Source: an uncultured archaeon (GTDB lineage Archaea > Asgardarchaeota > Jordiarchaeia > Jordiarchaeales > Jordiarchaeaceae). From it: DNA of 32,000 nt. This document shows, one piece after another, positions 9,451 to 29,496 of the stretch (position 1 is its first letter; every line of letters begins with the position of its first letter). Under the pieces are notes generated by a model. That model worked only from the letters and a program-made list of their open reading frames with translations, did not search any database and had not been told where the DNA came from. A program made the translations under genes and the position numbers. The stretch is taken from assembly GCA_964510585.1 (NCBI GenBank), contig CAZECW010000075.1:1-32000 (forward strand), given 5' to 3'.

Positions 9451-10386
9451 TTGATTATTGACGCCCATAGCCATATTGTTGATAAGGATTGGTATCCTGA
9501 AAGGTGGTGGAGTGAACTAGCTAAAGCCTTTGTTGACCCCGTGAAGCACTTGCTGGGTATGGAATTGACCCCGAAACAAATAGTTGAGCAGATAATGCCG
9601 ACTTTTTACGACCCCACGGGTGAGAAATGTCTTGCCGAGATGGACAAAGCAGGTATCGATATGACTGTTATATGTGCACAGGACTATGGTTTACTTCTGG
9701 GGGATCCCAAAGTATCCATTGAGGAGCAGAACCAGATTTTTGGGGAGATTCAAAAGAAACATCCTAAAAGATTCTTAGCCTTTTGTAGTGTTGATCCCCG
9801 CAGACCCGGTGCAGATAAACTCGTTAGGCGGTGTTTTGAAGAGTGGAAGATGAGCGGTTTGAAGCTCCACTCATCAACTGGGTTTTATCCCAATAGCAAG
9901 GAAGTCTATAGACTTTTGGACATTGCAAACGAGTTTAAGAAACCGGTCCTATTCCACACTGGACAGATTGTGGCTCCGCTCAGGTCTAAGTACTGCAACC
10001 CCATGTTTCTTGACGACGTCTGCCTTGACTATCCAGACCTCTGGATACAAGCCGCGCATATGGGCTTCGGCTGGCGCTACGAATTATACCATCTAGGCTC
10101 ATGCAAAACCAATCTCACAGTGGACTTCTCAGGCTGGCAGGTACTGGCAAAAACAAACTACGCCCGCTTCTGCCACGCACTACGCGAATGCTTGGACGAA
10201 TTCACAGCCGCAAGAGTTCTTTGGGGAACAGACAACCCCTACCTCCGCGCCGCAGTACCAGATAGTGAATGGATACAAATGATAAAAGACCTGCCAACCA
10301 AAGCTCCTGAGGGAATCACATTCACCAAAGAAGAAGTAGATGCTATGCTGGGAGGCAGCGCAAAGAAAATATTCGGAATAAAATAA
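9451..10386 (+). CDS. Amidohydrolase family 2 (TIM-barrel metallohydrolase/decarboxylase)
   Basis: IIDAHSH, GLKLH, FHTG, AHMG and WGTDNP; GGAGG before TTG. Confidence 0.9.
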   Translation: MIIDAHSHIVDKDWYPERWWSELAKAFVDPVKHLLGMELTPKQIVEQIMPTFYDPTGEKCLAEMDKAGIDMTVICAQDYGLLLGDPKVSIEEQNQIFGEIQKKHPKRFLAFCSVDPRRPGADKLVRRCFEEWKMSGLKLHSSTGFYPNSKEVYRLLDIANEFKKPVLFHTGQIVAPLRSKYCNPMFLDDVCLDYPDLWIQAAHMGFGWRYELYHLGSCKTNLTVDFSGWQVLAKTNYARFCHALRECLDEFTAARVLWGTDNPYLRAAVPDSEWIQMIKDLPTKAPEGITFTKEEVDAMLGGSAKKIFGIK

Positions 10387-10427
10387 AAAGAGTAAAAAAT
10401 ATTTTTAGCCTAGAGGCCCCACTCTCT

Positions 10428-10498
10428 ATTTTTTTTATTTATTTATTTTTTTATTTTATTTTGGGAATTTTGGTCTGTCCCGTTCTTTTATTTTTTTC
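10428..10498 (+). terminator. Long T-rich tract between convergent genes
   Basis: Repeated T4-T8 runs downstream of the amidohydrolase. Confidence 0.45.
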
Positions 10499-10512
10499 GA
10501 GTTGCTGGTTTG

Positions 10513-11076
10513 TTACTTTTTGGAGAAGCCGTATGTTCCTAGGCGTTTTCCGAGGCTGTGGTATTCGCTTGATATGGGGTTCCAGGTTATGGGTTTTAGT
10601 TTTTCGAAGTTTATGCTTGTGGGTGAATCCATAACGTCCTCGTTTGCATTCACATTTACTATTTCGCCGATGAATAGGTCGTGTGCTCCAAGGTTGATTA
10701 TATTTTTAACTTTGCACTCCATGTTCACGGGGCACTCCTCGATTAATGGGGGTTTCACCTTTTTTGCCTTGACTGGTGTGAGCCCGGTTTCTTTGAACTT
10801 GTCCACCTTTTTTCCAGTGACTATTCCACAGTAATCTGTTTCCTTCACAATGTCAGCGGTTGGTACATTCACAACGTATTCTTTGGTTTTACTTATCAAC
10901 TCGTGGGTATAGCGTGAGGGCCTTATGGAAATGCCTATCTGGGGAGGCTCAGAACACACCACTCCCACCCAGGCCAGTGTGCAAACATTGGGCTTACCCT
11001 TCTCATCTATTGAGGTAGCTAAAATCACCGGGGTTGGATACAAAGCAATACTGGGTTTCATCTCCTTCTTACCCAT
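10513..11076 (-). CDS. Flavin reductase family protein (DIM6/NTAB)
   Basis: YPTPVILATS, ISIRPSRYTHELI, CGIVTGKKVDKF, PLIEECPVNMECKV and GAHDLFIGEI. Confidence 0.92.
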   Translation of the reverse strand: MGKKEMKPSIALYPTPVILATSIDEKGKPNVCTLAWVGVVCSEPPQIGISIRPSRYTHELISKTKEYVVNVPTADIVKETDYCGIVTGKKVDKFKETGLTPVKAKKVKPPLIEECPVNMECKVKNIINLGAHDLFIGEIVNVNANEDVMDSPTSINFEKLKPITWNPISSEYHSLGKRLGTYGFSKK

Positions 11077-11174
11077 TATAATTCCACCTCTGAAAAGTAT
11101 TGCAGAAACTATAGTAGTTTATGCCATTTATTTTTATCTCAAAGAGTGTATGTATAGTCAGAAACTATCAGGTT

Positions 11175-11960
11175 TTATGGTTTGTTTAATTTTTTGGACC
11201 GTTTTTGAACCAAGCTGATTCGTACAGTATGGAAAAACATAACTGAGGCAACAAGTATCATCCCTAGAGTTATGGATAAATACGCGTTATCAATAATTTG
11301 CGGATTCCATACTCCTCCTATGCTGTAACCTGCAAAGATAAAACCGTTTTGAACACCAACGTAAAGCCAAGAAAACTCATAATATACGTGCATCCAGTAA
11401 CCATTTTTATATTCGTGTATTTGCATTTCTGATAGTGGCATGAATAGATCGGCCAAGAATTTTTCATATCTATGAATTTCCTGATAATAATGTATAGTAA
11501 AGTTCACAGGATTTGTAGCATTCTTTTCAAGATAGAGTACCCACTCACTTGTACCATTGTAATATTTTTTCACTTCTACCGTGAAGTTGGCGCTGCTAAC
11601 ACTGTCCGCTTTGAAAACAGGATTCCTCTCAAACCAGCCCGGTTCTGTAATGTTTATGTAAAAGTTCACTGTATCGTTCACTTCAAGGTACCCTTTAAGA
11701 TAGGGAGTAACTGCATGGTTGGAGTTTTTACCATAAAGGCTGTAGTAACTTATGTTAAAAGTATAATTGGGATTCTCGGACGTAAGCACACCAGCAACCA
11801 TCTCCTCAGTAGAGTAGGAGGGATATGGTAATAGCACCACTCCCCAGTTGCGACCATATTTGAAAGCAAAGTAGGAACCCAGAAATATCATTGAAAAACC
11901 TACTAGAAGAATGAGGACTATTCCAATTCCCATCTTATTTGTAAACTTCTCCCACACCAA
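11175..11960 (-). CDS. Hypothetical membrane protein (N- and C-terminal TM helices, extracellular domain)
   Basis: Hydrophobic ends and several N-x-S/T sequons (NYT, NIS, NDT, NIT, NFT, NGT, NAT). Confidence 0.7.
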   Translation of the reverse strand: MVWEKFTNKMGIGIVLILLVGFSMIFLGSYFAFKYGRNWGVVLLPYPSYSTEEMVAGVLTSENPNYTFNISYYSLYGKNSNHAVTPYLKGYLEVNDTVNFYINITEPGWFERNPVFKADSVSSANFTVEVKKYYNGTSEWVLYLEKNATNPVNFTIHYYQEIHRYEKFLADLFMPLSEMQIHEYKNGYWMHVYYEFSWLYVGVQNGFIFAGYSIGGVWNPQIIDNAYLSITLGMILVASVMFFHTVRISLVQKRSKKLNKP

Positions 11961-12049
11961 TTTCTCCCTTTGCCCATATTTTTACTGTTAACAGTTTTAG
12001 TAGAAATTCAAATAAATATTACGAATATCGAAACTCATATTATTGAAAA

Positions 12050-12274
12050 TTTTTCCAGCTTTACAGCTAGTAATATAGACATAAACTGCCGAGATAACGA
12101 ATATGAAATTTAAACCTAAGCATTGCTAGTCCCCATTTCCATAATTGCAGAATAAGTCTCACTGAAACATGTAGTATTCCAGAAGCCTAGTGCAGCAACC
12201 ATGTCTCCCAGCGCGAAAAATAATAGGATATCACAACTAGTTTTGCAACCAGAGGTCTGTAAGAAGACATCCAT
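12050..12274 (-). pseudogene. Possible eroded small membrane-protein gene
   Basis: GGGAGG before ATGs at 12274/12270; hydrophobic segments (PLVAKLVVI, LLFFALGDMVAALGFW, LNFIFVISAVYVYI) split by frameshifts and stops. Confidence 0.3.
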
Positions 12275-12581
12275 AATCCTCCCAATAATTGTTATTCATA
12301 TTTTTTTATTCTAAACTATATTTCTTTCTTTGTGTGCAAAAGGGGATTGATTTGAATTTTCTATTTTGAGGCTTTTTGAAATGCAGGGGTACGATTTTTA
12401 TTTTCGCTACCCTCCATGTTTGGCTCTTCATGTACGCATCTACATAAAGGAAGCTAAGGCTCAAAAATAGTAGTCAGAATATTCTTAAAATTTGGATGGG
12501 TTAGACTTTTTATTTGGGTGATACTCTGAATTAAAAAAGGAAAAATCGTATTAGAAATTAAAGAAATGGATGGAGTAAGAT

Positions 12582-13751
12582 TTGAAGAGTGAGATTGTGA
12601 GAATTGAATTAACTCCTCTGTATGTGCCCTTCAGGCCTGAAGTAAGGAAGGCTATGGAGTCGGGTGAAGGCCAATTGGGAATGGCGATTGGTGCAGAGGA
12701 ACCCTGGCTTGGCGGCGATTTTGTCATCTGTAAACTCATATGTGATGATGGTACCACTGGTTTGGGTGAGTCATTTGTGTGGTTGCCTGAAACGGGCATT
12801 TCTCCTGAACAGATTATTTCGACGATTAAGGGAACTTTAGCGAAGTACATTCTGGGTGAGAGCCCCTTCAATGTGGAGCGCATCCAGCAGAGATTTGATG
12901 CAAACATTACTAGAAACGAGGTGGCGAAGGGTCTCTTGGATAAGGCTTGTTATGATTTGATGGGAAAAATTACGGGGCGTCCCGCGTGCCACTTTATGGG
13001 GGGCCAAACGGTAAACGAAATTCCACTGGCGGCTCTCATACCTTTAACTGATACTGAAACCATGGTGGAACTTGCCAAACTGTTTCACAAGGTGGGATAT
13101 CGTGCTTTTCGGCTTAAACTGGGCAAGGGGGTTAAGGAGGATAGGGAAATTGTGGAGAGCTTCCGCGATGCTTTAGGCTCTGATGTGGCTCTGCGGGTGG
13201 ACTATAATCAAGCCTATGAGCCACCTGAGGCTGTGCGGGCCATTAGGGCTATTGAGCCCTTTGGTATTGATTTCGCCGAGCAACCAGTTAATGCTAATGA
13301 CTATTTGGGTATGGCCTATGTTCAAAAGCGGGTGGATACACCCCTTATGGCTCATGAGGGATGCTTCTCCGTGAGGGACTTTGTTACTTTGGTTGAACTT
13401 GGTGCGGTGGGGGTTCTGGGTTTGAACTCGGAACGCCCAGGAGGGGTTACTAATGCCCTTAAGGTGTTAAATTATGCTGAGTTGCGGGGTATCGGTGCAG
13501 TTTTGCATAATCAGCCTTTGGGGATTGCGTCTGCTATGCATATTCATTTGGCTGCGGCCCGGCCCCATAATTTTTGGTATGAGACTGAGCTCTTCGGCTA
13601 CGTGATGTTTGAAGATGACCTCATTAAGGACCCCATAGATTACAGTGACGGTAAGGCCAAGCTGCCACAAGGACCGGGATGGGGAGTTGAACTGGACGAG
13701 GAAGCTCTAGCAAAATATGCCACGGGGCCCACTACTGTTATAAAGAAGTAG
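12582..13751 (+). CDS. Enolase-superfamily enzyme (mandelate racemase/muconate lactonising enzyme-like) with atypical active site
   Basis: GTTGLGES, DKACYDLMGK, RLK, VDYNQ, EQP and PQGPGWGVELDEEAL. Confidence 0.9.
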   Translation: MKSEIVRIELTPLYVPFRPEVRKAMESGEGQLGMAIGAEEPWLGGDFVICKLICDDGTTGLGESFVWLPETGISPEQIISTIKGTLAKYILGESPFNVERIQQRFDANITRNEVAKGLLDKACYDLMGKITGRPACHFMGGQTVNEIPLAALIPLTDTETMVELAKLFHKVGYRAFRLKLGKGVKEDREIVESFRDALGSDVALRVDYNQAYEPPEAVRAIRAIEPFGIDFAEQPVNANDYLGMAYVQKRVDTPLMAHEGCFSVRDFVTLVELGAVGVLGLNSERPGGVTNALKVLNYAELRGIGAVLHNQPLGIASAMHIHLAAARPHNFWYETELFGYVMFEDDLIKDPIDYSDGKAKLPQGPGWGVELDEEALAKYATGPTTVIKK

Positions 13752-13790
13752 AGAGCATTCTTGAAATATCGATTACGGAGTGTGAATACA

Positions 13791-15461
13791 ATGGAGATTA
13801 GCCTCTTTTATAATTGCACCATTCTAACTATGGACTCTAACGACTCTGAAGCCAGTGCTATGGCTATTTTTCGGGACAAAATCTTAGCCGTGGGTTCAGA
13901 AAAGGAGGTTAGAAACAGCATAGCCCAGTTTAGAGAGAAGAATCGGTTAGAAGGTGGTGAAACGGTTTCTTTACGGGAAATCAACTTGAATGGTGCTTGT
14001 ATTGTTCCCGGCTTTATTGATGCCCACATGCATCCGGGAATATACATTTTTTATAAAACACAGAAGAGTCTTTCAGGGGTTAAAGGGTATAAGGATTTGG
14101 AAAGAGTCCTTGGAGAGGAAGCGAGGAAATGCGGTGAGGGGCAGTGGGTTGTGGGTTTTGACTTGATGGAAGACATATTCGAAAAACCTGAGGAACGCCG
14201 GTTCCCCAACAGGTACGATTTAGACAAAATATGTTCCGAGCATCCGGTGTTAGTTTTGCGGCACGATGGACATATTTGTGCTGTAAATTCCCTAGCCTTA
14301 AAAATAATGGGAATTGATAAATCCAATGTTGCGGAGAAAACTGTGGAGGCTGGGGAAATTAGAGTGGATGAGAATGGGGAACCCACAGGAGTGTTTACCG
14401 AGGCAGCCACAGCCATTCCTCTGGGGTTTATGCCCCTGCCTGATTTACAGCGTTTCCTAGATGCGGGCAGAATATTTTCCCAAGAGCTGGCATCCTATGG
14501 AATCACCACCTGTGGCGGAGTGGTACAATTAGGGGAAGAGGGACCTGCAGGAAAGGCTGGAACCTTTGAGATACCGCTAATTCAAGGACTAATAAAGGAG
14601 GGGTTAATAGAGCAGGATTTCGTGTTTTACGTTATAACCACCCTGCCTAGTGAGTTAAAGAATGTTGAGAAATCCTTCCAAGAATTGGGTTTAGGGGAGG
14701 GAAGGTTCCAGGTGGGGGGAATCAAAAGATTTGCAGACGGTACATTCGGAGCCTTCACCGCTGCCATGTTTGAGCCGTTTTCAGATTCGCCGCGAAAGAG
14801 TAAGGGCTTCTTTATGACTGATGAGGAGTCTCTCTTCGAAATCATAAAGGAAACTTACAAGATGGGATACCAAATCCTTGTACATGCCATAGGGGACAGA
14901 GCCAACCGGTGGGTTGTTGACCTCTACAAGCGGGTAGTAAAAACCGTTAAATCGAAGGAAGGGGGCCGACTCCGAATTGAGCACGCATCAGTGCTTACGC
15001 CGGACGTTATCAGAGACGCCGCAGATTTGGGAATAGTTTTGGTCTGTCAGCCAATGTTCATAGATAGCGAGTATACATGGCTTGAGAAACGCTTAGGCCC
15101 CGAGAGGATAAAAAATGTTTATCCATTCCGTTCAATAATTGATGCCGGTATATTTCTAGCAGGGGCTTCAGACGCTCCGGTGGAATCCGCCAGAGTATTG
15201 AAAGCCTTGCAGGTGTGCGTTACCCGAAACGGCTTTGTACCCGAACAGGCTATAACCATAACTGAAGCAATTAAAATGTTTACGTTGAATGCGGCGTATG
15301 CCCTGGGACAGGAGAAAATTAAGGGAAGCCTCGAAGAGGGAAAACTGGCCGACTTTGTAATTCTGGAAAGAAATCCTAAAAGCGTTCCCCCAAACCGGAT
15401 TGCAGACATTAGAATACTGGCAACATATCATCGGGGACGGCTAATTTATTCTCCGCATTGA
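13791..15461 (+). CDS. Amidohydrolase family 3 (YtcJ-like); probable start ATG 13791
   Basis: PGFIDAHMH, DGH..VNS, GEPTG, IKRFADG, HAIGD, RIEHAS, ASDAP and GSLEEGKLADFVIL. Confidence 0.92.
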   Translation: MEISLFYNCTILTMDSNDSEASAMAIFRDKILAVGSEKEVRNSIAQFREKNRLEGGETVSLREINLNGACIVPGFIDAHMHPGIYIFYKTQKSLSGVKGYKDLERVLGEEARKCGEGQWVVGFDLMEDIFEKPEERRFPNRYDLDKICSEHPVLVLRHDGHICAVNSLALKIMGIDKSNVAEKTVEAGEIRVDENGEPTGVFTEAATAIPLGFMPLPDLQRFLDAGRIFSQELASYGITTCGGVVQLGEEGPAGKAGTFEIPLIQGLIKEGLIEQDFVFYVITTLPSELKNVEKSFQELGLGEGRFQVGGIKRFADGTFGAFTAAMFEPFSDSPRKSKGFFMTDEESLFEIIKETYKMGYQILVHAIGDRANRWVVDLYKRVVKTVKSKEGGRLRIEHASVLTPDVIRDAADLGIVLVCQPMFIDSEYTWLEKRLGPERIKNVYPFRSIIDAGIFLAGASDAPVESARVLKALQVCVTRNGFVPEQAITITEAIKMFTLNAAYALGQEKIKGSLEEGKLADFVILERNPKSVPPNRIADIRILATYHRGRLIYSPH

Positions 15462-15466
15462 GGACG

Positions 15467-15922
15467 CTAAAAATTGTTTTTGTGGGTGTTTTCCTCTTTA
15501 TCTTCTTTTATTGTCAGTAGGTTTTCTGAGCCGTCTAGAATTGTTTTGTAGTCTTCGATGAAGCCTCTTCCAATGGTGAGTAATTTATTGTCCTTGAATG
15601 TTGTCACTACTGTTAGGAGAGTTAGAGGCCCCATTTCAACTTTCGCGTAGGAGGATAGTAGTTTTTTCTTTTCCCCCGACACGGTAACTCCCCGTTGTGA
15701 GAAGATGTCTGGAAGCTGACAGTTTTCCAATTTTAGCTCTGTATAAGTTTTCCAGGGTATTAGTATCATTCCGTCGAATCCCGTGTCAAGGAGTGCAACT
15801 ATTTCGGTTTTCTCTCCGCTAACAAAGTTTGATATTTTAATCTTGACTGCTGGAGATAAATAGTTGAATCTTTCATCAATGTATGGTTGCTTGTATACTA
15901 CTCTATTTGTAGGCTTGTTCCC
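15467..15922 (-). CDS. Retropepsin-like (clan AA) aspartyl protease; catalytic region lacks a canonical start
   Basis: Extending the listed 15467-15769 ORF upstream gives PAVKIKISN..KTEIVALLDTGFDGMILIP and later IGRGFI. The frame is open to 15979 with no ATG/GTG/TTG before the DTG. Confidence 0.8.
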   Translation of the reverse strand, partial: GNKPTNRVVYKQPYIDERFNYLSPAVKIKISNFVSGEKTEIVALLDTGFDGMILIPWKTYTELKLENCQLPDIFSQRGVTVSGEKKKLLSSYAKVEMGPLTLLTVVTTFKDNKLLTIGRGFIEDYKTILDGSENLLTIKEDKEENTHKNNF

Positions 15923-16302
15923 CCCAAGTAGATTTCTTTGGGTTGTTTGAGGAATTTTTCCGTAATCCTTATAATTATTCTATGTTTGACGTCTCTCGAC
16001 AGTTTGAGCTCCTCGGCAGAGTCAGCAACTATCGTATTTCCATTCTCAAAGGCCACCCATTTCCCCACGTAGTTTCGGAAAAGCTCATCTTTCATCTTTT
16101 CAAACGCTAGATTGTTTTTCTCTAACTCTCTGCGATACTCTTCCGCCCCAACCCAGTCATCCAAAGTTCTGTCAACAGCCCTAGAGATATTCCCATTACT
16201 AGTAGTGGTATTTACAGTTCCCTTAGCTCCTGTCGACTCAGCCTCACCCTTCTTGGTTCCCCAAAAAATGGAAGAGTCTTTAACCCTCGAATGTTCTATC
16301 AA
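15898..16302 (-). CDS. DUF5678-like domain protein with low-complexity N-terminus
   Basis: NNLAFEKMKDELFRNYVGKWVAFENGNTIVADSAEEL; TTG start 1 nt after the upstream stop. Confidence 0.7.
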   Translation of the reverse strand: MIEHSRVKDSSIFWGTKKGEAESTGAKGTVNTTTSNGNISRAVDRTLDDWVGAEEYRRELEKNNLAFEKMKDELFRNYVGKWVAFENGNTIVADSAEELKLSRDVKHRIIIRITEKFLKQPKEIYLGGTSLQIE

Positions 16303-16303
16303 T

Positions 16304-17550: not shown

Positions 17551-17574
17551 AAAAATCATCCGGTAAATTTCTCA

Positions 17575-17856: not shown

Positions 17857-18297
17857 ATGAAAGCCTATATGGTAGAAAAAATGAAGGAAAGGAAGGAAAA
17901 TTACCTTCGCAAAATTCAATTTGCTCAAGATAACATTAAATCCGTTAAAATGTGGCTGACAGGAATAACGCTTGAAAAGTTTTTGGACGATAAGAAGACA
18001 CGCTATGCCGTGTTTAAGGCCTTTCAGGAAGTGGTAGAAACCTGTATGGATTTGGCGGCTATGCTGGTTAAAGATCGTGGAATTCCACCCAAAGATGATT
18101 ATACCAATCTGGAGAAGTTAAGAGAAGAAAAGGTAATATCTGGCGAGATGGAGGATATTTTAGCGGAGGCTAATGGTCTACATAAATGGATAATCCACAG
18201 ATACAATAAGCTGGATGAAGCAGAAGCCTACAAAGCGATGCTTAGACTCATAACTCCCCTAGAGGGATTCATAGGAGTTGTAAAAAAGTGGATTTAG
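17857..18297 (+). CDS. hepT: HEPN/DUF86 (HepT-like) toxin with altered catalytic motif
   Basis: RYAVFKAFQEVVETCMDLAAMLVKD..PKDDYTNLEKL..ANGLHKWIIHRYNKLD; true start may be 17869 or 17881. Confidence 0.85.
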   Translation: MKAYMVEKMKERKENYLRKIQFAQDNIKSVKMWLTGITLEKFLDDKKTRYAVFKAFQEVVETCMDLAAMLVKDRGIPPKDDYTNLEKLREEKVISGEMEDILAEANGLHKWIIHRYNKLDEAEAYKAMLRLITPLEGFIGVVKKWI

Positions 18298-18671
18298 TGG
18301 AGAAAATTAAGAGGGATTTCGGATTTCTGACCGATCGCCGTGATGTTCTAGCTGTGCTTCTTTACGGCTCTCAGGCTTCAGGTGAGTCCACTCCGAGGAG
18401 CGATGTTGATATCTGCATTGTAGCCCCGAAAGCAGACCGTGACGAGCTTTTTAGAACAATTTTGAGGCACGTTAGAGAACCTTATGATGTCAAGATATTT
18501 GAATCTCTACCAATGTACTTGAAAATTCAGGTGATCAAAAACCACATCGTAGTCTATGCAAGAGAGATCCTAGACCTGTACGAATACTTCTACACCTACA
18601 GGAAACTCTGGAAGGATCAAGAGAGGCGGAATACACTAACAAAAGAAGATATAGAAACCCTCCTCAAATGA
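18288..18671 (+). CDS. mntA: Minimal nucleotidyltransferase (MntA-like antitoxin)
   Basis: LLYGSQASGESTPRSDVDICIV (GSx10DxD) and YDVKIFESLPMYLKIQVI; overlaps the HEPN gene. Confidence 0.9.
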   Translation: MDLVEKIKRDFGFLTDRRDVLAVLLYGSQASGESTPRSDVDICIVAPKADRDELFRTILRHVREPYDVKIFESLPMYLKIQVIKNHIVVYAREILDLYEYFYTYRKLWKDQERRNTLTKEDIETLLK

Positions 18672-18913
18672 AAGTAAACCATTTAACCCACTTTCCGCAC
18701 CCATTGGTTTATTCTTTTCTATTTTTGCGAAATTTGTAAGTCTATACGAAGAATGCTGAACTTCAAACAATTTTTGGAAATCTCCAAATGCCCCCAAGAA
18801 AAGGACCAGAAACTGGTAAAAACAAAAAAATAACAAAAAATTCACAAAGGATGCGGAATGTGGGATAACTGAACAAGAAGTTTATTTATTGTTGAGAGGC
18901 TAAATATTTTTTT

Positions 18914-19758: not shown

Positions 19759-20259
19759 CTAAGTGTATGACGCTACAGCGTAAGGTTGAAGAAAAGTAAC
19801 GTGTGTAATCCACGCTTCGACCGTGTAAGAATTAAAGTATTGATGCCTGTCTACATTAGTCCACACCCTATTTGGGGTTCCAGAGACTAAATCTGCACCG
19901 CTTGGTACGGCGTCAACGAGAGTTATCTTGTAGGGTTCTAGTTGACCATCACTCTCTACCGCAGTATACACATACCAACCGTAGCGTGGAATCCAAGACC
20001 CCCATGACCAAGTGTACCAAACCCATTTCAGATACCAGTAATTAGGTGTTACGATTCCCTTACGTCACTTAGTCGCGTATGCGTGTAGGCTATAGGAGTA
20101 CTCTCCAGAAACATATTTATAGGCATCTAGTGCATTTAAGTAACCGTGCCCGTGGTTGTGTTCCCATCCAGTGTCTCCGATATCGTGTAGTGCGGCTGCA
20201 CGAATAATAGCCGCTCGAACTAATACACCTCTATACTGTCGCAGTTGTATAATCTGAAG
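19759..20259 (-). pseudogene. C-terminal remnant of a subtilase (S8)-like extracellular protein
   Basis: LVRAAIIRAAALHDIGDTGWEHNHGHGYLNALDAY resembles the end of an S8 domain. After an in-frame TGA at 20065-20067 the same frame continues into the listed 19759-19971 ORF. Confidence 0.55.
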
Positions 20260-20446: not shown

Positions 20447-21535
20447 TTAATGGATTCTTTGTTTTTCATATTCTATGATTACGTCTCGGGCTTTTTCAAC
20501 GGGTATTTCTTCTTTTACCCTAATCATGGTTATTGCTTCCTTTGGGCATTTGCTGGAACATAGGCCGCATCCGATGCATCTTTCTTCCTCAATTTTTATC
20601 AGGTTATCTGTTAAATCATCATTGTGGGGGTAGTGGTGGTATATTGCTCCCATTGGACATATCTTGATACAGGATTCGCATAGTGTGCATTTTTCTTTGT
20701 TGATTTGGGGTTGGAAGTTTGATTTGGTTAGGGTTCTGGGATTGTTCAGTTCCGTGAGTCCTCTTAGGAAGCCGCAGCAGCAGGGGCAGCAGTTGCATAT
20801 GAAGTTTGGTTTCTGCTGTTGATTATTGGTTATGTGTACCAGTCCTGCTTCTTCTGCTTTTTTGAGTATTTCGAGGGCTTCCTCGTAGCTTACGTATCTT
20901 GCTCCTCGGTGCTTCACCAAGTAGTCTGCGGTGGAGTCGAAGTTCATGCAAACCTCTAGTGGTTTTTCGCAATGGTCAAAGGTTGATCGGCAGACACAGT
21001 TGATTACTGCTATGCTGCGGGCGTCTTTGATGTATTGGCTTACCCTCTCGAAAGTTAAAATTTCTGCTTTGGTGTCTAGTTTTTGCTCTACTGGTATGAC
21101 TCTTATGAAGGGGTAATTGGAGGCCCCCAGTTCCATTCCCCAGTACTTGTAGATTTTGTTAAATATTCTCCTTACTTCTCTTCGCTCGTCAGTTGGTTCT
21201 CCTTCCATGAACCATTCGAAAACTCCAGGCACGAAGGGCATCATTGCATAGTACAATTTTTTATCGCTTTTACCTTCAAACTCAAAAATCAGGCCTTTTT
21301 TAGCCGCATCCTCAATAGCTACTTTGATTTCCTCCTTGTCTCGGCCTAGTTTCTCCGCTATTTGTTCCACGGTTTTGGGCTCTATAAATGGTCCGTCAAA
21401 AGCGGAGGAAACTAGTTCTGCTTCTTCGGGTTTAAACATTATTTTGAGTACTCTCAGAGTGTCTTTAGATTTTGGAATTTTAAGAGGCCATTTGTTTAAT
21501 TTATTAAATAATTGGTCATAAACTTCATCGCTCAT
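20447..21535 (-). CDS. 4Fe-4S dicluster-domain protein with Cys-rich central region
   Basis: CVCR..C..C, ICNCCPCCCGFLRG, CTLCESCIKICP and CIGCGLCSSKCP. Confidence 0.9.
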   Translation of the reverse strand: MSDEVYDQLFNKLNKWPLKIPKSKDTLRVLKIMFKPEEAELVSSAFDGPFIEPKTVEQIAEKLGRDKEEIKVAIEDAAKKGLIFEFEGKSDKKLYYAMMPFVPGVFEWFMEGEPTDERREVRRIFNKIYKYWGMELGASNYPFIRVIPVEQKLDTKAEILTFERVSQYIKDARSIAVINCVCRSTFDHCEKPLEVCMNFDSTADYLVKHRGARYVSYEEALEILKKAEEAGLVHITNNQQQKPNFICNCCPCCCGFLRGLTELNNPRTLTKSNFQPQINKEKCTLCESCIKICPMGAIYHHYPHNDDLTDNLIKIEEERCIGCGLCSSKCPKEAITMIRVKEEIPVEKARDVIIEYEKQRIH

Positions 21536-21723
21536 AGAAGGTTCGCCTCGGCAAGCTATCTTGAACAGGAGTGTAAGGGAGTTATAAGGTTGAGTGCTTT
21601 ATATCTTTCTCCGCTGTGACAGTATTAATTATTTTTGAATTGTATTTTTTAAAAAAATTTTATATAGATGGTTAAAATAATTAACAAGTCATATATCTTC
21701 TGAAAGTGAAGGAAGGTTGTGGT

Positions 21724-21803
21724 ATGAGTATTGACTTGGGAAATAACCGTCTAAATGTTGGCAACCAGTTGGTTAGAGCAGCTTGGAGGTATCCAGACAA
21801 GGA
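21724..21803 (+). repeat. 80-nt direct repeat, copy 1 (partner 24835-24914)
   Basis: One mismatch in 80 nt, including 68 contiguous identical nt. Confidence 0.9.
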
Positions 21804-23265
21804 AGCGGTGGTCTGCAAGGGCAAAAGGTTAACCTTTAAGGAGTTGAATTCTAGAGCTAATAGTTTGGCTCATGGAATCATGGATCTGGGTTTAAAAAAG
21901 GGAGACTTTGTTTCTGCTTTAATGATGAATTGTACCGAGTATGTTGAGACTTATTTCGCGTTGGCAAAGATGGGAGCAATTATCGCTCCATTGAACTATA
22001 GGTTGACCCCCAATGAGCTTGTTCAACTCATCAATCAGTGTGAAGCTAGAGCAATAATTTTCGGTCAAGAGTTCAAAGATTTGGTTAAAAATTTGCGCCC
22101 ACATATTGGAACCGTGAAGCATTATATCTGCGTTGGAGAAGAAGTGGTTCAAGACGTTATTCCATATGAGGACTTAGCTACTGGTTACTCTACAGGTGAG
22201 CCGAATGTTGATGTTTTTCAAGACGACGGTCAATTTATGAATACTACTTCTGGTACCACGGGTTTACCCAAGGCGTCCATAATGTCGCATTTTAACAATC
22301 TCGCAGTGGTTATGCAGATTTCACTTGAAATTGGGTTAACATCGGACAAGGTTTTCATGACCGTTCTTCCACTATTCAACAGAGTTGGGTGGACCACAAC
22401 TCTTACCGCAGTTAGCTGCGGATGTAAGAATGTTATCACAGAGATTGACCCCAAAGCAATACTAGAGGCAATCCAAGAAGAGAAAGTGAACATGGTGAAC
22501 TTTGTACCCGTGATAACGAATCTTTTAATGCTTGTTCCCGAATTTGAAAAATATGACACCAGTTCCATGGAGCTCATCATATATGCGGGAATGCCCCTAA
22601 CTTCCGAAACCCGAGAGGCAACCTACAAGTACTTTGCACCCAAAATCTCTGAGTATTACGGCTCCACAGAAACTTCCCTAATAACATATTGTAATCCTGA
22701 AGTAAAGAGAAGGAAACCAACCTCTCTGGGAACTCCAGTATTTGGAGTGGAATTAAGACTAGTTGATGAAAAGGATCAAGATGTACCCCTAGGGGAAATA
22801 GGAGAAATTATTATAAGGTCTCCCGCTCTAAACGCCAACTATTTCAATAATCCCGAAAAAGCGAAAAAAGACATGCGTGGCGGATGGTTCCACACCGGTG
22901 ATTTGGGAAGATTCGACGAAGAACGACATCTATACGTTGTGGGCAGAGTTGAGGACATGATTATTAGTGGAGTTGACAAAATTTTCGCCCCAGAAGTGGA
23001 AGAGGTGATACAGAAACACCCTAAAGTCGGGCAGTGCGCAGTAATCGGATTACCAGATAAATCCCTAGGCAAAGTGGTTACCGCTGTAGTAACCCCCAAG
23101 CCGGGAGAAAATGTGGATGAGAGAGAAATTATAGAGTTTTGTAAGGGTAAAATAGCAGATTTCAAAATACCGAAAAAGGTGAAAACAATAGAAGCTATTC
23201 CAAGAACCCCCACCGGGAAAGCCATAAAGTTCCAACTGGTGAAGAGATTTTCGGAACAAGAGTGA
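21724..23265 (+). CDS. AMP-binding acyl-CoA synthetase (ANL superfamily), paralog 1
   Basis: TSGTTGLPKA, YYGSTE, GEIGEI, GWFHTGDLG and TGK. Confidence 0.92.
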   Translation: MSIDLGNNRLNVGNQLVRAAWRYPDKEAVVCKGKRLTFKELNSRANSLAHGIMDLGLKKGDFVSALMMNCTEYVETYFALAKMGAIIAPLNYRLTPNELVQLINQCEARAIIFGQEFKDLVKNLRPHIGTVKHYICVGEEVVQDVIPYEDLATGYSTGEPNVDVFQDDGQFMNTTSGTTGLPKASIMSHFNNLAVVMQISLEIGLTSDKVFMTVLPLFNRVGWTTTLTAVSCGCKNVITEIDPKAILEAIQEEKVNMVNFVPVITNLLMLVPEFEKYDTSSMELIIYAGMPLTSETREATYKYFAPKISEYYGSTETSLITYCNPEVKRRKPTSLGTPVFGVELRLVDEKDQDVPLGEIGEIIIRSPALNANYFNNPEKAKKDMRGGWFHTGDLGRFDEERHLYVVGRVEDMIISGVDKIFAPEVEEVIQKHPKVGQCAVIGLPDKSLGKVVTAVVTPKPGENVDEREIIEFCKGKIADFKIPKKVKTIEAIPRTPTGKAIKFQLVKRFSEQE

Positions 23266-23401
23266 TATAGAATAAGATAAGGTTAAAGATAAGTCAAATT
23301 TCTAATTTGTATAAAGGATTCTTCTTTTTTACTTATAACTTTTGTTGAAGTAAATATTTTTTAGATACCAAAAAATAAAGATGGGAAAGAGGTGACTGAA
23401 T

Positions 23402-24109
23402 ATGAGAATAAAAATTATTAACCCAAATACGCATTTGGAGGGAACAAAACGCATAGAAAGAGTGGCTAAAGCACATGCCAGAGCAGACACGGAGGTTATA
23501 GCGGTTAGTCCCAAAAAAGGACCGGACGCTATTGAAGGTTCTTACGATGAAGCCTTGGCAGTACCTGGAGTCCTAGAAGAAATAAAGAGGGGGATAGAGG
23601 ATGGCTACGATGGCTTCATAATTGCATGCTTTTTGGATACAGGTCTTTATGCTGCTAGAGAACTGACTGATAAACCAGTTATAGGAATTGGTGAGGCCTC
23701 TATGCACATGGCCTGTATGCTGGGACGCAGATTCTCTATGCTCTTGCCTGCACCGAGATGGGATATAACCTATGTTTTGGCAGAGTTTGTCCGGAGATAC
23801 GGTTTAGAGAATAGGTTCGCATCGGCCAGAGGTATAGGATTGGGGGTATTAGACATCGATAAAGACATAGGTAAAACCCTAGAGATTCTCAAAGAGGAGG
23901 GAACTAAAGCCATTCTACAGGACGGTGCAGAGGTTATTTTGCTTGGCTGCGCAGGATTTGCGGAACTAGACAAGAAGCTTGAGAAAGAATTGGGAGTTCC
24001 AGTAATAGATCCCGTTATTGCAGCGTTAAAATTCATGGAAGCAATACTGGACTACGGCAAAAAAACGAGTAAAATCTCCTTCAGGCTGCCAGAGAGACTG
24101 AGAAAATAA
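23402..24109 (+). CDS. Asp/Glu/hydantoin (allantoin-type) racemase
   Basis: MRIKIINPNT, IIACFLDTGL, PVIGIGEAS, ILLGCAGF and GVPVIDPV (two catalytic Cys). Confidence 0.92.
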   Translation: MRIKIINPNTHLEGTKRIERVAKAHARADTEVIAVSPKKGPDAIEGSYDEALAVPGVLEEIKRGIEDGYDGFIIACFLDTGLYAARELTDKPVIGIGEASMHMACMLGRRFSMLLPAPRWDITYVLAEFVRRYGLENRFASARGIGLGVLDIDKDIGKTLEILKEEGTKAILQDGAEVILLGCAGFAELDKKLEKELGVPVIDPVIAALKFMEAILDYGKKTSKISFRLPERLRK

Positions 24110-24834
24110 GTCAATGAATCGAGATAATCAAAAACCATATCTATAAAAAGTAGTAAGATACTATGAAACTGCAGTTGGTGTTTCCTTTATTTATTGGGAT
24201 AGAACCACTTTTCCTTCAATGTCCTTTTTTTCCGTTCTCAAATATTTTGAATTATTTAAATTTTATACGATCCTCAGCATCAAAAATTCTCGGAAGAATT
24301 TAAATATAAGTGATTCTTGTCAATTTACAAAAAACTGTTTATCTTAACTCTCAGGTATAGAGAGATAAGGTTGTTGGGTGAAGAGAGATCCTTCAGTATT
24401 TTAGCATTTGTTAAAAAGTGTTCGAAGAACATCGGGGAATTTGAGTCCTCCAGACTTGATTTGATGTGTATGAAGCTAGCTGGGAATTTTAATCTGAGGA
24501 AGTTGATGAAATAATTTCTTAATTATTGGGAAAGGGCATACTTTTTTAGAAACCTAATAGGGTGAACTCCAACGTAGATACGGAAGGGTACTCTGCTTTT
24601 TTCGATTTATGGTGCTAAAACCACTTTTTGGAATTGGTTAGCATACATAATATTTTATAGCTATACAGGAAATCGTTCTTGAAGCCTGTATCATACTGTT
24701 TATTGTTTTTTATTAATGGTTTATATAAAAATTCAGAATATTATTGAAGAATGGGAAATATTTAAAACGTGTACATATTAAAATAAGAAACTTAAATAGC
24801 TAATTTTTGGAAGGAAGAGCGTGGAGGATATACT

Positions 24835-24914
24835 ATGAGTATTGATTTGGGAAATAACCGTCTAAATGTTGGCAACCAGTTGGTTAGAGCAGCTTGGAGG
24901 TATCCAGACAAGGA
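24835..24914 (+). repeat. 80-nt direct repeat, copy 2
   Basis: Matches 21724-21803 except GAT versus GAC at codon 4. Confidence 0.9.
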
Positions 24915-26370
24915 GGCTATAGTTTGTAAGGGTAAGCGTGTTACCTTCAAGGAGCTTAACAGACGAGCTAACAGTTTAGCCCACGGATTGATGGGTCTTG
25001 GAATTAGGAAGGGAGACTTTGTCGCAATAATTCTTATGAACTGTGTGGAATTTGTCGAAACTTACTTCGCTTTAGCAAAGATTGGAGCAATTGCCGCCCC
25101 ACAAAACTATAGGCTCACCCCGAACGATATTGAACAACTTATTAATCAGTGCGAAGCAAAAGCACTAATTTACGGTAGTGAGTTTAAGGATTTAGTCAAA
25201 AATTTGCGTTCAAAATTGAAGTCAGTTAAAAACTACATATACGTTGGAGGGGGAGAGTTCGAAGACGCTATCCCCTACGAAGAATTGGCGACAGCGCATT
25301 CAACTGAGGAGCCGAAGGTTGACATTTTCCAAGATGACGGCCAATACATGAATTATACTTCAGGCACTACTGGGTTGCCGAAGGCTTCGATAATGACTCA
25401 TTATAATAATCTTATGGCGGTATCGCAGATAGCTATGGAGGTAGGATTTGACTCAAGCTGGGTCATAATGACAGTATTTCCACTGTTTCACCGGGTAGGA
25501 TGGGTAACTGTATTGGCGGGGGTTACATTGTGTTGTAAAAATGTTATAACGGAAATAGATCCAAAGAGTATACTTGAAAACATTGAGAGGGAAAAGGTCA
25601 ACTTCGTCAATTTTGTTCCAGTAATAACGAATCTTCTTATGATGGTACCCGACTTTGACAAGTATGATATGAGTTCACTTAGAACAATTGTGTACGCAGC
25701 AGCTCCGCTAACTACTGAGGTGAGGGAAGCTACTCAAAAATATTTCACAAAGAACATAGCAGAGTATTATGGAAATACCGAGAGTTCTATTCTGGTTTAT
25801 TGTAACCCGGAGATGAAAAGAACTCACCCCACATCTGTGGGCACACCTGCATTCGGAGTTGAGCTACGATTAGTTGACGAGAATGATAAAGATGTGCCAA
25901 TAGGAGAGATCGGTGAGATTGTCTGTAGGTCTCCAGCATTGAATGCTAACTACTTTAAGAACCCTGAGAAAACAAAACAGGCGATGCGAAACGGTTGGTT
26001 CCATATGGGAGACCTTGGCAGATTCGATGAGGATGGACACTTGTACATTGTAGGAAGGGTGGAGGATCTAATCATTAGCGGTACAGACAGAATTTTTGCA
26101 CCAGAAGTGGAAGACCTACTTAGACAGAATCCTAAAGTTCAAGACTGCGCAGTTATAGGGTTACCAGATAAAGTATTGGGCAAAAAGGTCACCGCAATAA
26201 TAACACCCAAACCGGGAACACAAGTAAATGAAAAGGAGTTGATAGAATACTGCAAAGGTAAAATCGCCGATTTCAAAATACCTAAGAAGATAATAATAAG
26301 TGAGATGATACCAAGAACTGCTACTGGAAAAATTCTAAAATACCAGCTTGTGGAAAAATATTCCCATTAA
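24835..26370 (+). CDS. AMP-binding acyl-CoA synthetase (ANL superfamily), paralog 2
   Basis: YTSGTTGLPKA, PLFH, YYGNTE, GWFHMGDLG and TGKILK; GGAGG ribosome site. Confidence 0.92.
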   Translation: MSIDLGNNRLNVGNQLVRAAWRYPDKEAIVCKGKRVTFKELNRRANSLAHGLMGLGIRKGDFVAIILMNCVEFVETYFALAKIGAIAAPQNYRLTPNDIEQLINQCEAKALIYGSEFKDLVKNLRSKLKSVKNYIYVGGGEFEDAIPYEELATAHSTEEPKVDIFQDDGQYMNYTSGTTGLPKASIMTHYNNLMAVSQIAMEVGFDSSWVIMTVFPLFHRVGWVTVLAGVTLCCKNVITEIDPKSILENIEREKVNFVNFVPVITNLLMMVPDFDKYDMSSLRTIVYAAAPLTTEVREATQKYFTKNIAEYYGNTESSILVYCNPEMKRTHPTSVGTPAFGVELRLVDENDKDVPIGEIGEIVCRSPALNANYFKNPEKTKQAMRNGWFHMGDLGRFDEDGHLYIVGRVEDLIISGTDRIFAPEVEDLLRQNPKVQDCAVIGLPDKVLGKKVTAIITPKPGTQVNEKELIEYCKGKIADFKIPKKIIISEMIPRTATGKILKYQLVEKYSH

Positions 26371-26536
26371 TCTTTCCTTTTTCTTTTATTGCGAATTTCT
26401 CTCTTGGTAACTTTTCCTTGGGGATGTAGTAAGAAATAAATGCTTTGAATCTTATTGGAATTTGAGATAGTGATAAAGCCTTTGGTATAGATCTTCCCCA
26501 AAGCCATTGGTCCTTAGTTAAATTATTAATTCCCAT

Positions 26537-27907
26537 ATGGATGGAGGATGGTTGGATAAACAGTTATCTAAAAAATTTGTGAAGCAGGTTAAAAAAAGGA
26601 TTCCATGGATTGACCATTTGATTGAGGATTATTCTACTGCTTTGGAGTTTAACCCGGAACTCATAGATTATTCTGTGCCTAAGCAGTCTGTCTGTCTTCT
26701 GTGTAGGGGTACAAGGATGTTGTGTGGAAAAAAGAAGTGTCCTCTGCTTGAGCGTTTTTATAGTTATGTTAGGGTGTCGAGGAGTTTTGATGGAACTCAG
26801 CTGGTTGGTGATTCTCCGCCGAGTGCCTTTGTGGGTAGAAAGGGGTATCCTTATGTTTATGCTGGTCCGATGGTTCCTCCGGAGAGGGGTGACACCAGTA
26901 TTTATGATGTTCCTGAGTTATGGTATGGGAAGGATGTGGAGGAGATAATTGGTTTTAGATGCAAACTGGTGCGGGGTATGTTTATCACAGATGTTAGGGA
27001 TGCCAACTCGGATAACAAGTTGCTTAGGGATACCAGGGAACTGGCTCTTGCTGGTGAGCCTGTGGACGCTGAGGTTATATTGAAGAAGAAGCCTAAGCAT
27101 CGCCTTTTGCTATCTAGTGAGGTGCAGCCTATGGGCCCCTCCGCGCCCCTTGAGAACATTAACATTGGGTCGTTGAAGGTGCCAAAAATTGTGGATAAGG
27201 TGTATTTTGACACTGATCTTAAAGCCCTTGATGGGATGTTGATGCTCTACGAGAATGGTTTGCCTGTTACCAGGATACAGCGGATTTTGAGTGTTGGCGC
27301 TATGGGAATTAAAGATAATAGGAAATTGGTGCCCACCAGGTGGAGTATTACTGCTGTGGATAGCAATATCTCCAAATTTTTGAGGGAAAACGTGAAGGAT
27401 TTCCCATTGATTAATGATTATTTGGTGTATGAGGCGGATTATCTTGATAACAGGTTTGTTGTTCTTATGATGCCGAGGCCTTGGAGCTACGAGTTGATAG
27501 AGGCATGGTTTCCGGGCACTTTGTGGAACCCTGATAGGGAGCATGTGGGTATGGCTGCGGATTGGGAGCCATATTGGGGTAGAACTACTTATGCCAGTAT
27601 TGGGGGATGCTACTACGCTGCTAGACTTGCGGTTACGGAGCATCTTCTTCGGGAGAGGAGGCAGGCATCTGTAGTTATTTTCCGAGAAACGCTTCCTGGA
27701 AATTTGATGCCTCTGGGGGTGTGGCTGGTTAGGGAATGTGTGAGGGATGCTTTAAGAAGGGAACCGGTTAAGTTTCAAACATTGGAGGACGCTCTTCAAC
27801 ATGTTAAAACTCGGCTTCGCATTGGTATGAAACATTGGTTGCAGGTGAGTGGGGTATTGTCTGAAGTTAGGAAGCAGCGTTTATTAACTGAGTTTTTAGG
27901 GTTTTAA
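26537..27907 (+). CDS. nreA: Nre family DNA repair protein
   Basis: CLLCRGTRMLCGKKKCP, SPPSAFVGRKGYP, LVPTRWSITAVD, GGCYYAARL and C-terminal PIP-like QRLLTEF. Confidence 0.92.
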   Translation: MDGGWLDKQLSKKFVKQVKKRIPWIDHLIEDYSTALEFNPELIDYSVPKQSVCLLCRGTRMLCGKKKCPLLERFYSYVRVSRSFDGTQLVGDSPPSAFVGRKGYPYVYAGPMVPPERGDTSIYDVPELWYGKDVEEIIGFRCKLVRGMFITDVRDANSDNKLLRDTRELALAGEPVDAEVILKKKPKHRLLLSSEVQPMGPSAPLENINIGSLKVPKIVDKVYFDTDLKALDGMLMLYENGLPVTRIQRILSVGAMGIKDNRKLVPTRWSITAVDSNISKFLRENVKDFPLINDYLVYEADYLDNRFVVLMMPRPWSYELIEAWFPGTLWNPDREHVGMAADWEPYWGRTTYASIGGCYYAARLAVTEHLLRERRQASVVIFRETLPGNLMPLGVWLVRECVRDALRREPVKFQTLEDALQHVKTRLRIGMKHWLQVSGVLSEVRKQRLLTEFLGF

Positions 27908-27909
27908 CC

Positions 27910-28719
27910 TTGATTGAGGAAGTTAAAGAAGTTTTTTGTAAGGGAATTTTGAGTAGGAGCGGAATAGGTGGTGTAGACTATTCCATTAATCCTTATACTG
28001 GCTGTTCTCATGGCTGTGCATACTGCTATGCCCGCTTCATGTTGAGGTATGCTAAGACTAGGCAGCCCTGGGGAAAATTTGTCCACGTAAAAATTAATGC
28101 CCCCACGGTATTAATGAAGGAAATTAAGGGTAACATGTGGGGGACGATTCTTTTAAGTAGTGTTTGTGACCCTTATCAGGAGCTGGAGAAAAAATATGAG
28201 ATTACTAGGAAAATTTTGCAGGTAATTTCCAAGCATAACAATTTTAAAGTTGACATTTTAACCAAGTCAGATCTAATAGTGAGGGATTTGGACATAATAA
28301 AGAAAATAAAAAATGTTGAGGTGGGGTTCTCCATCTCTCATTTCGATGAGGAGTTTAGGAGAATATTTGAGCCCGGAGCGCCCAGTGTTGAAAAAAGATT
28401 CCATGCCTTAGAAACCCTAAACAAAAGTGGGGTTGACACGTATGTTTTTGTTGCGCCAGTCATTCCACTAATCACTGAGAGGCACATGGAAAGTATACTG
28501 GAGAGCGCTGAGCGCTGCCATGCGAGGTACCTGTTTTTCGACACACTAAATATCAAGTGCGGGAACTGGAAACCCATTACCGCAGCAATGGAGAAATATG
28601 AACCAAAGATTCTTCCACGCTTTATAGAAGTGATGGAAAAACCAGAAGGATACTACTCACAATTCAAAGAAAGAATCTTAAATATGTGCAATAACTTACC
28701 CTGCAGTTTTACATTCTAA
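27910..28719 (+). CDS. Radical SAM protein, spore-photoproduct-lyase-like family
   Basis: SINPYTGCSHGCAYCYAR, SSVCDPYQ, ILTKSDLIVRDLD and FEPGAPS. Confidence 0.9.
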   Translation: MIEEVKEVFCKGILSRSGIGGVDYSINPYTGCSHGCAYCYARFMLRYAKTRQPWGKFVHVKINAPTVLMKEIKGNMWGTILLSSVCDPYQELEKKYEITRKILQVISKHNNFKVDILTKSDLIVRDLDIIKKIKNVEVGFSISHFDEEFRRIFEPGAPSVEKRFHALETLNKSGVDTYVFVAPVIPLITERHMESILESAERCHARYLFFDTLNIKCGNWKPITAAMEKYEPKILPRFIEVMEKPEGYYSQFKERILNMCNNLPCSFTF

Positions 28720-29462: not shown

Positions 29463-29496
29463 AGTTGTTATTTCCCAATTCTGTTCTGAACCAGTT

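Follow-up and report, generated by a model that had tools for sequence, protein, structure and literature searches.

Abrupt changes in strand composition are known from several systems. Origin jumps and N-domains of bacteria, human and yeast are marked by an upward jump in G-C and T-A skew that is visible at third codon positions and in intergenic DNA irrespective of gene orientation, with arms of tens of kb to Mb (PMC3459929). Centromeres of Candida albicans show an abrupt and very large jump which returns to baseline in ~3 kb, is opposite to the replication skew, and occurs once per chromosome on an early origin (PMC3459929). The elements termed GRINS possess intense, correlated G-C and T-A coding skews that are strongest at third positions and change abruptly (Nivina et al., 2021; PMC8256042), fungal genes exhibit a genome-wide 5′/3′ gradient in GC skew that extends to four-fold sites, flanks and amino-acid use (McLean and Tirosh, 2011; PMC3315797), and human meiotic breaks are bordered by two arms of ~2 kb, in each of which C>N and A>N changes affect a single strand (Hinch et al., 2023; PMC7615360). 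Here a gradient from G/T-rich to A/C-rich third codon positions is described in a 32,000-nucleotide stretch of DNA (the window; G000:C75:1-32000) from an uncultured archaeon of the Jordiarchaeaceae, and is traced across the source genome and its relatives. The pattern is regarded here as a variant of origin-centred strand asymmetry that lies outside each nearest known case; each of these fails at least one defining feature that was tested or matches in part.

The source genome (G000; 3.78 Mb in 217 contigs) was annotated with a self-trained open reading frame (ORF) caller which identified 3,462 genes, of which 3,125 were kept; the starts are approximate. Third positions occupied by G or T were scored as 1, from which the average over all codons of the genome that share the amino acid and first two bases was subtracted to give a residual. 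Met and Trp codons were excluded. The gradient had been noted in a first-pass annotation of the window by hand counts of G/T at third positions in seven 30-codon blocks, all of which were recovered exactly on recount: 20/30 from 9451 and 5/30 from 10141 in an ORF labeled as an amidohydrolase; 21/30 at the start and 2/30 at the end of a flavin reductase-like gene (10513-11076, minus strand); and 27/30 at 26762 and 23/30 at 27782 in the Nre gene, followed by 8/30 at 28621 in a radical SAM gene. The blocks were not cherry-picked. After correction for synonymous class, 21 of the 22 scorable genes in the window are G/T-richer 5′ than 3′, with a mean slope of 0.15 that corresponds to z = 7.2 against 2,000 within-gene shuffles (shuffle maximum 0.062). 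Genome-wide, the same direction of slope is shared by 74% of 2,679 genes (mean 0.098), and G+T at four-fold sites declines from 0.506 in the first gene decile to 0.380 in the last. As the gradient persists both at four-fold sites and across the genome, it is not explained by the choice of blocks or by amino-acid composition, as the annotation had allowed that it might be. Native and island genes behave alike, the slope being the same across codon-typicality quintiles (0.086-0.108).

Viewed on the plus strand, the genome track is a sawtooth in which DNA is A/C-rich to the left and G/T-rich to the right of fixed points, here termed centers. The arms of these dipoles span 0.3-4 kb and enter genes of either orientation, and the gradient belongs to DNA position, not to the gene or mRNA. 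Four-fold, NNY, NNR and Ile sites each shift by ~2 ln units with the local field calculated from the remaining classes, and at four-fold sites ln(T/A) and ln(G/C) move by 2.5 and 1.8, respectively, across field bins. Amino-acid use moves with the field as well: Val and Arg go up, and Gln, Thr and Lys go down, by ~0.3-0.4 ln units. Non-coding DNA also carries the skew, as intergenic G-C skew switches likewise and crosses zero in tandem gaps ~100 bp past the upstream stop. A scan of G000 that was blind to gene borders and counted jumps of at least 0.36 detected 203 upward and 44 downward ones, compared to none of either type in one shuffled genome. At the average gap the arms extend ~400 bp, with a height that is independent of the distance to the next gap, and the autocorrelation of the track is negative at 3-5 kb. 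Following the operon, as the annotation had proposed, is not the rule, since arms enter genes on the opposite strand and, of 178 strong switches with two arms, 54 are located >200 bp inside genes.

The annotation had suggested that tandem, convergent and divergent junctions be compared, and their jumps do differ. For gaps of at least 120 bp, the mean jump was 0.225 at convergent (n = 233, 90% positive), 0.132 at tandem (n = 804, 77% positive) and 0.072 at divergent junctions (n = 415, 66% positive), a ranking that was retained >3 kb from every strong center; for gaps <30 bp it was −0.020 at tandem (n = 477) and 0.042 at convergent junctions (n = 77). AT-rich gaps were not the determinant that the annotation had envisaged: jump size tracks gap length and junction type, and does not rise with gap A+T. 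At 100 short convergent junctions the plus strand residuals of both genes correlate (r 0.40). Gene 3′ ends score −0.113 at long convergent and −0.078 at long tandem junctions, and 5′ ends score +0.054 at tandem and +0.036 at divergent junctions. As these end values depend on the neighboring junction, a gradient intrinsic to the gene does not fit.

The presence of tRNA genes was considered as a determinant and rejected, as tRNAs are present at several top jumps and absent from others, and some tRNA genes coincide with no jump. The set of tRNAs on which this rests is incomplete; relaxed ARAGORN settings yielded 743 mostly false calls. Most G000 tRNA genes were missed by ARAGORN and Rfam (6 and 9 found, respectively), for example, those at C140:13723 and C126:24283-24392, apparently due to introns at non-canonical positions, which are known for this class (PMC11291895). 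A GC-rich element of at least 80 bp is present in ~20 G000 gaps, including C37:10974-11589, C72:56324-58000 and C49:7031-7556, where jumps are average.

Of the 178 two-sided up-jumps, 97 fall between genes, 27 are no more than 200 bp from a gene end and the other 54 are deeper, the last being localized to within a few codons. At 26 strong intragenic centers the mean residual is ~−0.33/+0.33 and fades to 0 over ~4 kb across neighbors of either orientation. A switch coincides with 6 of 29 scored Walker-B-like motifs, all six in ABC ATPases (background 0.8%), and switches recur at the same spot in paralogs, namely both cdc48 genes (second AAA domain), Rab GTPases and acyl-CoA ligases, families that were named by eye. 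Near-identical DNA is present in ABC genes both with and without the step. A shared DNA motif was sought with k-mers, spaced dimers and trimers, and degenerate palindromes, and was rejected; the best candidates, CC-N6/7-GG and GGNCC, had small effects. Placement of centers at the most conserved motif likewise was weak on measurement (median percentile 0.64, p 0.08; 48 of 72 genes with homologs). Neither hairpins nor cruciforms were found at the centers in folding and inverted-repeat tests (z −0.08 ± 0.24 across 26 centers and −0.05 ± 0.20, respectively), and 7 of the 178 centers (±700 bp) have a copy in G000 of >500 bp at >80% identity. Each explanation offered for the intragenic centers needs an extra assumption. 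Separately, CG-containing words, GATC, GGWCC and CTAG are depleted approximately twofold in G000 coding DNA compared to codon shuffles, and GATC and GGNCC carry a small positive mean jump.

The substitution spectrum was determined in orthologous DNA of three of the congeners compared with G000 (G001-G005), ~185 kb each, picked around strong jumps and containing 38,614 synonymous sites, on the tree ((G000,G003),(G001,G004)). At four-fold sites on three tips, with an absolute field of at least 0.2, C>T changes numbered 96/744 on the G/T-rich strand versus 181/3450 on the A/C-rich strand. The corresponding values were 57/786 versus 183/5886 for A>G, and 17/786 versus 30/5886 for A>T, giving rate ratios of 2.5, 2.3 and 4.2, respectively. 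Rates of C>A and A>C were equal on both strands and the asymmetry of C>G was marginal (p 0.02-1). The strand asymmetry was maintained with G001 and G004 alone and exhibited no flanking-base preference. In coding arms rich in G/T, C/T is close to its equilibrium and A/G somewhat exceeds its own; the divergence of these arms (0.36-0.41) is not lower than that of flat DNA (0.35). Thus, a directional process is at work and is not caused mainly by purifying selection; mutation and biased conversion have the same expectation in these data. The strand-asymmetric process that the annotation had inferred, centered on fixed points that mostly are intergenic, is borne out by the dipoles, the substitutions and the shuffles.

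A link to replication initiation, which also had been suggested, gains support from the same dipole at predicted origins. In the closed genome of G005, three boxes resembling the origin recognition box (ORB) lie upstream of cdc6 (1,639,072-1,640,012), and this predicted origin has a dipole of −0.24/+0.34 that exceeds all 609 junctions sampled. The jump at the predicted origin is at or near the top in four of six other Asgard genomes scored, ranking 1/61 in G006, 2/62 in G021, 2/54 in G016 and 4/74 in G014; the origin status of G016, and of G033 considered below, is doubtful because a single box is nearby. The predicted origin of G009 has a left arm of −0.18, a score that covers the left side only, and G034 and G020 were unscored as no ORB-like box was detected in the DNA examined. 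Over long range, G005 skew is +0.030 to the left (14 regions) and −0.026 to the right (17 regions) of the ORB locus in 20-kb regions (p 1.5e-5), is present in genes of both strands, and reverts near the antipode. As the sign is opposite to that of the local up-jump, fork direction is not what the arms record. Provided that the ORB locus is the origin, a weakly A/C-rich leading strand follows, and the short dipole marks initiation itself. The leading strand of yeast also is A/C-rich (PMC3459929). Bidirectional GC skew has been published for a complete Freyarchaeia genome, for which the placement of cdc6 or ORB was not found in the parts of the text and supplements searched (PMC11291895). One-sided lagging-strand arms were considered and set aside, as a constant offset fits the G005 data equally well.

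No canonical oriC was detected in G000, where four ORB-like matches with two mismatches are scattered and none are clustered, and the window contains no cdc6. The pairing of ORB boxes with an adjacent cdc6 is confined to the one ORB locus in G005 and in other relatives. Loss of Cdc6 in an origin-less lineage was rejected: G000 has no match over the cut-off, yet five of five congeners have Cdc6, and cdc6 is present in three copies in each of the four best congener assemblies. The G000 origin region probably is unassembled despite 96% completeness. A missing mismatch nuclease and an odd PolB set also were discounted, as NucS is present in 13 of 15 genomes, including four of four congeners searched, and PolB exonuclease matches were found in 15 of 15. 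Words containing GATATC are clustered either side of the ORB boxes in G005 (C1:1,638,200-1,641,950), with an AAA-type ORF next at 1,642,100, and lone perfect and near-perfect ORB-like boxes are located at G005:C1:287,378 and 78,435, far from cdc6 matches.

Among Asgard genomes this genus alone shows the effect strongly, and examples elsewhere are sparse, as judged from small samples. In 800 kb of G005 the 5′-3′ difference is 0.063 ± 0.007 (561 genes), with 32 up-jumps and 2 down-jumps. In ten Asgard genomes outside the genus (64-80 kb each) the difference ranges from −0.025 to +0.033 (standard error ~0.015), compared to 0.04-0.17 in six equal-size draws from G000, and of the jumps in 784 kb of this DNA, 2 go up and 1 goes down. 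In G002 and G005, some ABC copies carry a clear step and others lack it, as do three of three sister-family orthologs; the cdc48 step is absent in eight of eight orthologs outside the genus. A wider taxon scan based on Nre comprised 11 loci, too few for a survey beyond Asgard. In the sister-family genome G006, which otherwise shows few dipoles, the DNA to the right of a 1.5-kb gap forms a strong G/T arm of +0.2 to +0.3 at ~12-16 kb into C1:400,001-420,000.

Our preferred interpretation, held with confidence a little short of even, is origin-type bidirectional opening of the duplex at many secondary sites, where the displaced strand suffers damage. The gradient is the summed footprint of >1,000 point-centered strand dipoles. 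From each point the duplex would open outward both ways, as at the predicted replication origin, and over 0.3-4 kb the displaced strand (lagging template or non-template) would remain unpaired, with loss of C and A. The G/T strand would be the exposed strand, altered by deamination of C and A, with A>T changes perhaps arising via abasic intermediates. The opener may be the replicative helicase, loosely loaded and carried by RNA polymerase to where transcription units end. In yeast, origins mostly are near 3′ ends, and RNA polymerase pushes Mcm2-7 there (PMC4991242). Such pushing of double hexamers would put initiation at 3′ ends, mostly in convergent gaps; it is known in yeast and fly only (PMC4991242), and is not known to leave a footprint of this kind. 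Most openings would stay local, either abortive or soon merged, because the chromosome keeps one weak replichore pair of opposite sign. A G/T-rich strand right of the center, and its partner strand left, fits either damage to the displaced strand or G:T errors in outward 5′ to 3′ synthesis. The excess of A>T favors damage to C and A on the exposed strand, and the origin control together with the weight of 3′ ends makes origin-type opening the preferred reading. A broader proposal is that the genus licenses its chromosome in a eukaryote-like manner, with ORB-free helicase loading, sweeping to unit ends and fixed internal stalls, and hundreds of secondary origins that have an oriC-like short dipole; this is possible, although rather doubtful. 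A eukaryote-like spread of start sites was not found in the archaeal literature searched.

Several observations weigh against origin-type opening. The 54 strong centers deep within genes, at positions common to paralogs and devoid of a DNA motif, are not predicted by helicase sliding. Jumps at tRNA loci are 0.5-0.78 in some cases and ~0 in others. In A/C-rich coding arms the substitution equilibrium for C/T is 0.27-0.42 compared to a present value of 0.11-0.13, and divergence is lowest (0.25 versus ~0.33); these arms may be decaying or under other constraint, and the present strength of the process may be below that which built the pattern. Predicted origins lack a dipole in two of seven genomes scored on both sides (G011, rank 52/74; G033, 13/55), the ORB assignments are by consensus only, and predicted origins also are long gaps so that gap length and origin function are confounded. 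The opposite sign of the G005 long-range skew calls for a second process. Moreover, all relatives have the usual two to three strong Cdc6/Orc1 matches, and nothing in gene content sets the genus apart.

The centers may instead be hotspots for nicks or breaks, caused by topoisomerase cleavage at positive supercoils at 3′ ends or by recombination seeds at frozen motifs, from which a patch is rebuilt 5′ to 3′ outward by a G:T-tolerant polymerase so that the new strand becomes G/T-rich, with the lagging strand weakly likewise. This is an unlikely explanation. Its single rule would account both for the sign of the local dipole in G005 and for the reversed sign over long range, and the positions shared by paralogs fit sites that are unable to mutate away. 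In the twin-domain model, positive supercoils pile up at 3′ ends of transcription, and the order convergent > tandem > divergent agrees with supercoil build-up. The arms are similar to resection tracts of 1-2 kb (PMC7615360), and equal folds for C>T and A>G fit G:T mispairing, as proposed for GRINS (PMC8256042). However, A>T is 2-4 times higher on the G/T strand, which is not expected from G:T mispairing, no target motif was found, the centers are weakly tied to conserved residues, and NucS/EndoMS is present. If damage to the unresected strand dominates, 5′ to 3′ resection also would give the opposite sign (from PMC7615360, Figure 1). Less probable still is untranslated read-through or antisense transcription from gene ends and cryptic promoters, producing R-loops in which the displaced strand deaminates while ribosomes protect translated mRNA. 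The polarity and substitution spectrum would be right, the effect is strongest at 3′ ends and some tRNA clusters, and fungi have a transcription-linked 5′/3′ skew (PMC3315797). Nevertheless, the average over 11 ribosomal-protein genes on C18, identified by eye from their N-termini, is ~−0.01, so that sense transcription, presumed to be heavy, leaves no mark. This value also separates the pattern from transcription-associated asymmetry, in which the non-template strand of highly transcribed genes is G/T-rich. Furthermore, at six plus strand tRNA loci the arm upstream (mean −0.19) is at least as strong as that downstream (+0.11), saturated ±0.4 arms pass through opposite-strand genes, and the origin dipoles are left unexplained.

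Hundreds of fully productive origins with G/T-rich leading strands and forks that meet within a few kb, akin to miniature N-domains, would account for the sawtooth, the excess of up-jumps, the near-linear decay from strong centers and the negative autocorrelation at 3-5 kb. This scenario is very improbable, as edge amplitude does not grow with the length between gaps, the average edge is gone in ~400 bp, and G005 retains two long replichores of opposite sign that switch near the ORB locus and antipode; the same argument was raised against replication as the cause of the Candida centromere jumps (PMC3459929). Dispersed origins of the ordinary kind, with forks that run far, a possibility implied by the annotation, likewise conflict with arms of just 0.3-4 kb and with the opposite sign of the G005 long-range skew. 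Selection acting on mRNA structure (5′-3′ pairing, or hairpins that span the switch) or on codon choice along the gene has been largely refuted and hardly merits credence. The 60 steepest genes do show a slight excess of 5′/3′ duplex formation (mean z −0.37 ± 0.14), and the low divergence of strongly A/C-rich coding arms would fit selection. Yet there is no excess folding across the 26 centers, none of four window genes out-pairs its shuffles by >1 standard deviation, the skew also is non-coding and orientation-blind, and G/T arm divergence is not reduced. The annotation's alternative of selection for 5′-3′ mRNA pairing thus was rejected once folding was compared with shuffled controls.

The pattern differs from the described systems in several respects. 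Unlike N-domains (PMC3459929), the arms are of 0.3-4 kb, >1,000 sites are present in a 3.8-Mb prokaryotic genome, the amplitude ranges up to saturation and does not scale with spacing (mean decay ~400 bp, strong centers ~4 kb), and the local sign in G005 is opposite to the long-range leading-strand sign. The Candida jump is confined to one site per chromosome, whereas here most gene ends and the interior of genes are involved. The likeness to GRINS, gauged here by four-fold field bins and not by the 150-nt window statistic of the GRINS paper, includes the same amino-acid shifts (Val and Gly up; Thr, Gln and His down; PMC8256042). However, GRINS are defined as duplicated, compared to 7 of 178 centers here, and the fixed A/C-then-G/T order and intergenic majority are outside their definition (PMC8256042). 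The main text of that paper does not contain the word archaea. The fungal skew is tied to the gene, with C at the 5′ and G at the 3′ end and no reported T-A gradient (PMC3315797), whereas the sign here is opposite, G and T move together with a strong T-A gradient, and the field passes gene borders. At meiotic breaks resection would put the single strand on the other side (PMC7615360), and C>A and A>C are symmetric here. Full-text searches, which left most subscription journals outside, found no local keto/amino dipole or 5′-3′ keto gradient for archaea.

Within the window (Table 1), the switch near 10422 is the strongest two-armed dipole. The switch at 20024-20067 is one-armed because there is little scorable coding DNA on its left. 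From the switch upstream of Nre, the residual climbs from +0.25 to +0.4 inside the gene, and four-fold G/T in Nre is 78% in G000, 69-77% in three close congeners and 57% in G002 and G005. The arm that starts near 28824 runs on through the convergent gap at 29462-29497. A scan of the window with Rfam gave no match, and contigs aligned to it revealed strain differences only. The best matches to its DNA come from hot-spring metagenomes, and the matching datasets listed consist of DNA contigs only.

Table 1. Switch points, arms and associated genes in the window (residuals are for the plus strand, left/right of the switch).
Feature	Position	Strand	Description
Switch point	2251-2297		Divergent junction, outside the span of the first-pass annotation; −0.16/+0.13
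ORF	9451-10386	+	Labeled amidohydrolase in the first-pass annotation; no NCBIfam match at 1e-8; its 3′ third forms the A/C arm to the left of the 10422 switch
Switch point	10398-10428		In 126-bp convergent gap; −0.26/+0.22
Flavin reductase-like gene	10513-11076	−	Weak StyB match; 3′ end is a G/T arm on the plus strand
Switch point	12282-12294		Divergent gap 11961-12581; −0.08/+0.22
Two-gene unit (enolase-superfamily, amidohydrolase-like)	12582-15461	+	G/T arm fading over ~3 kb
Switch point	20024-20067		Left of Fe-S gene; −0.02/+0.23
Fe-S cluster gene	20447-21535	−	Coding strand A/C-rich toward 3′ end, a G/T arm on the plus strand
Switch point	26271-26342		3′ end of second acyl-CoA ligase gene, upstream of Nre; −0.08/+0.25
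Nre and radical SAM gene	26537-28719	+	Long G/T arm
Switch point	28818-28827		Tandem gap after radical SAM gene; −0.05/+0.17
G/T arm on plus strand	29094-31956		Passes 34-bp convergent gap 29462-29497 without jump, into two minus-strand genes

Residue 5 of the Nre ORF is Trp in G000 (window 26537-26551) and a TAG codon in three congeners (97-98% identity), and more distant Nre matches begin at residue 5-6. The true start probably is downstream of that called, judging from these alignments, and the TAG codon therefore is no evidence for pyrrolysine read-through. Tandem genes for a HepT-type RNase and an MntA-type nucleotidyltransferase at 17857-18671 correspond to a type VII toxin-antitoxin pair, the HepT match being just below and the MntA match below the curated cut-off. 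A dispersed repeat of ~180 bp directly follows the MntA-like gene (18685-18864), with many copies in congeners and raised contig depth, and 1.4 kb next to it is missing in two more distant strains. Two similar long-chain acyl-CoA ligase genes (21706-23265 and 24835-26370) have near-identical N-termini 3.1 kb apart.

These observations bear on how eukaryotes came to have many loosely placed origins instead of one or a few that are defined by sequence. A footprint common to the ORB origin and ~1,000 gene-end sites yields predictions at base-pair level for initiation, unwinding or breaks. Whatever the cause, position-dependent shifts in synonymous and amino-acid composition can bias analyses of codon usage, horizontal transfer and phylogenomics, and the affected lineage is used to place eukaryotes. 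Moreover, the bacterial rule that the G-rich strand is the leading strand may swap origin and terminus in this genus.

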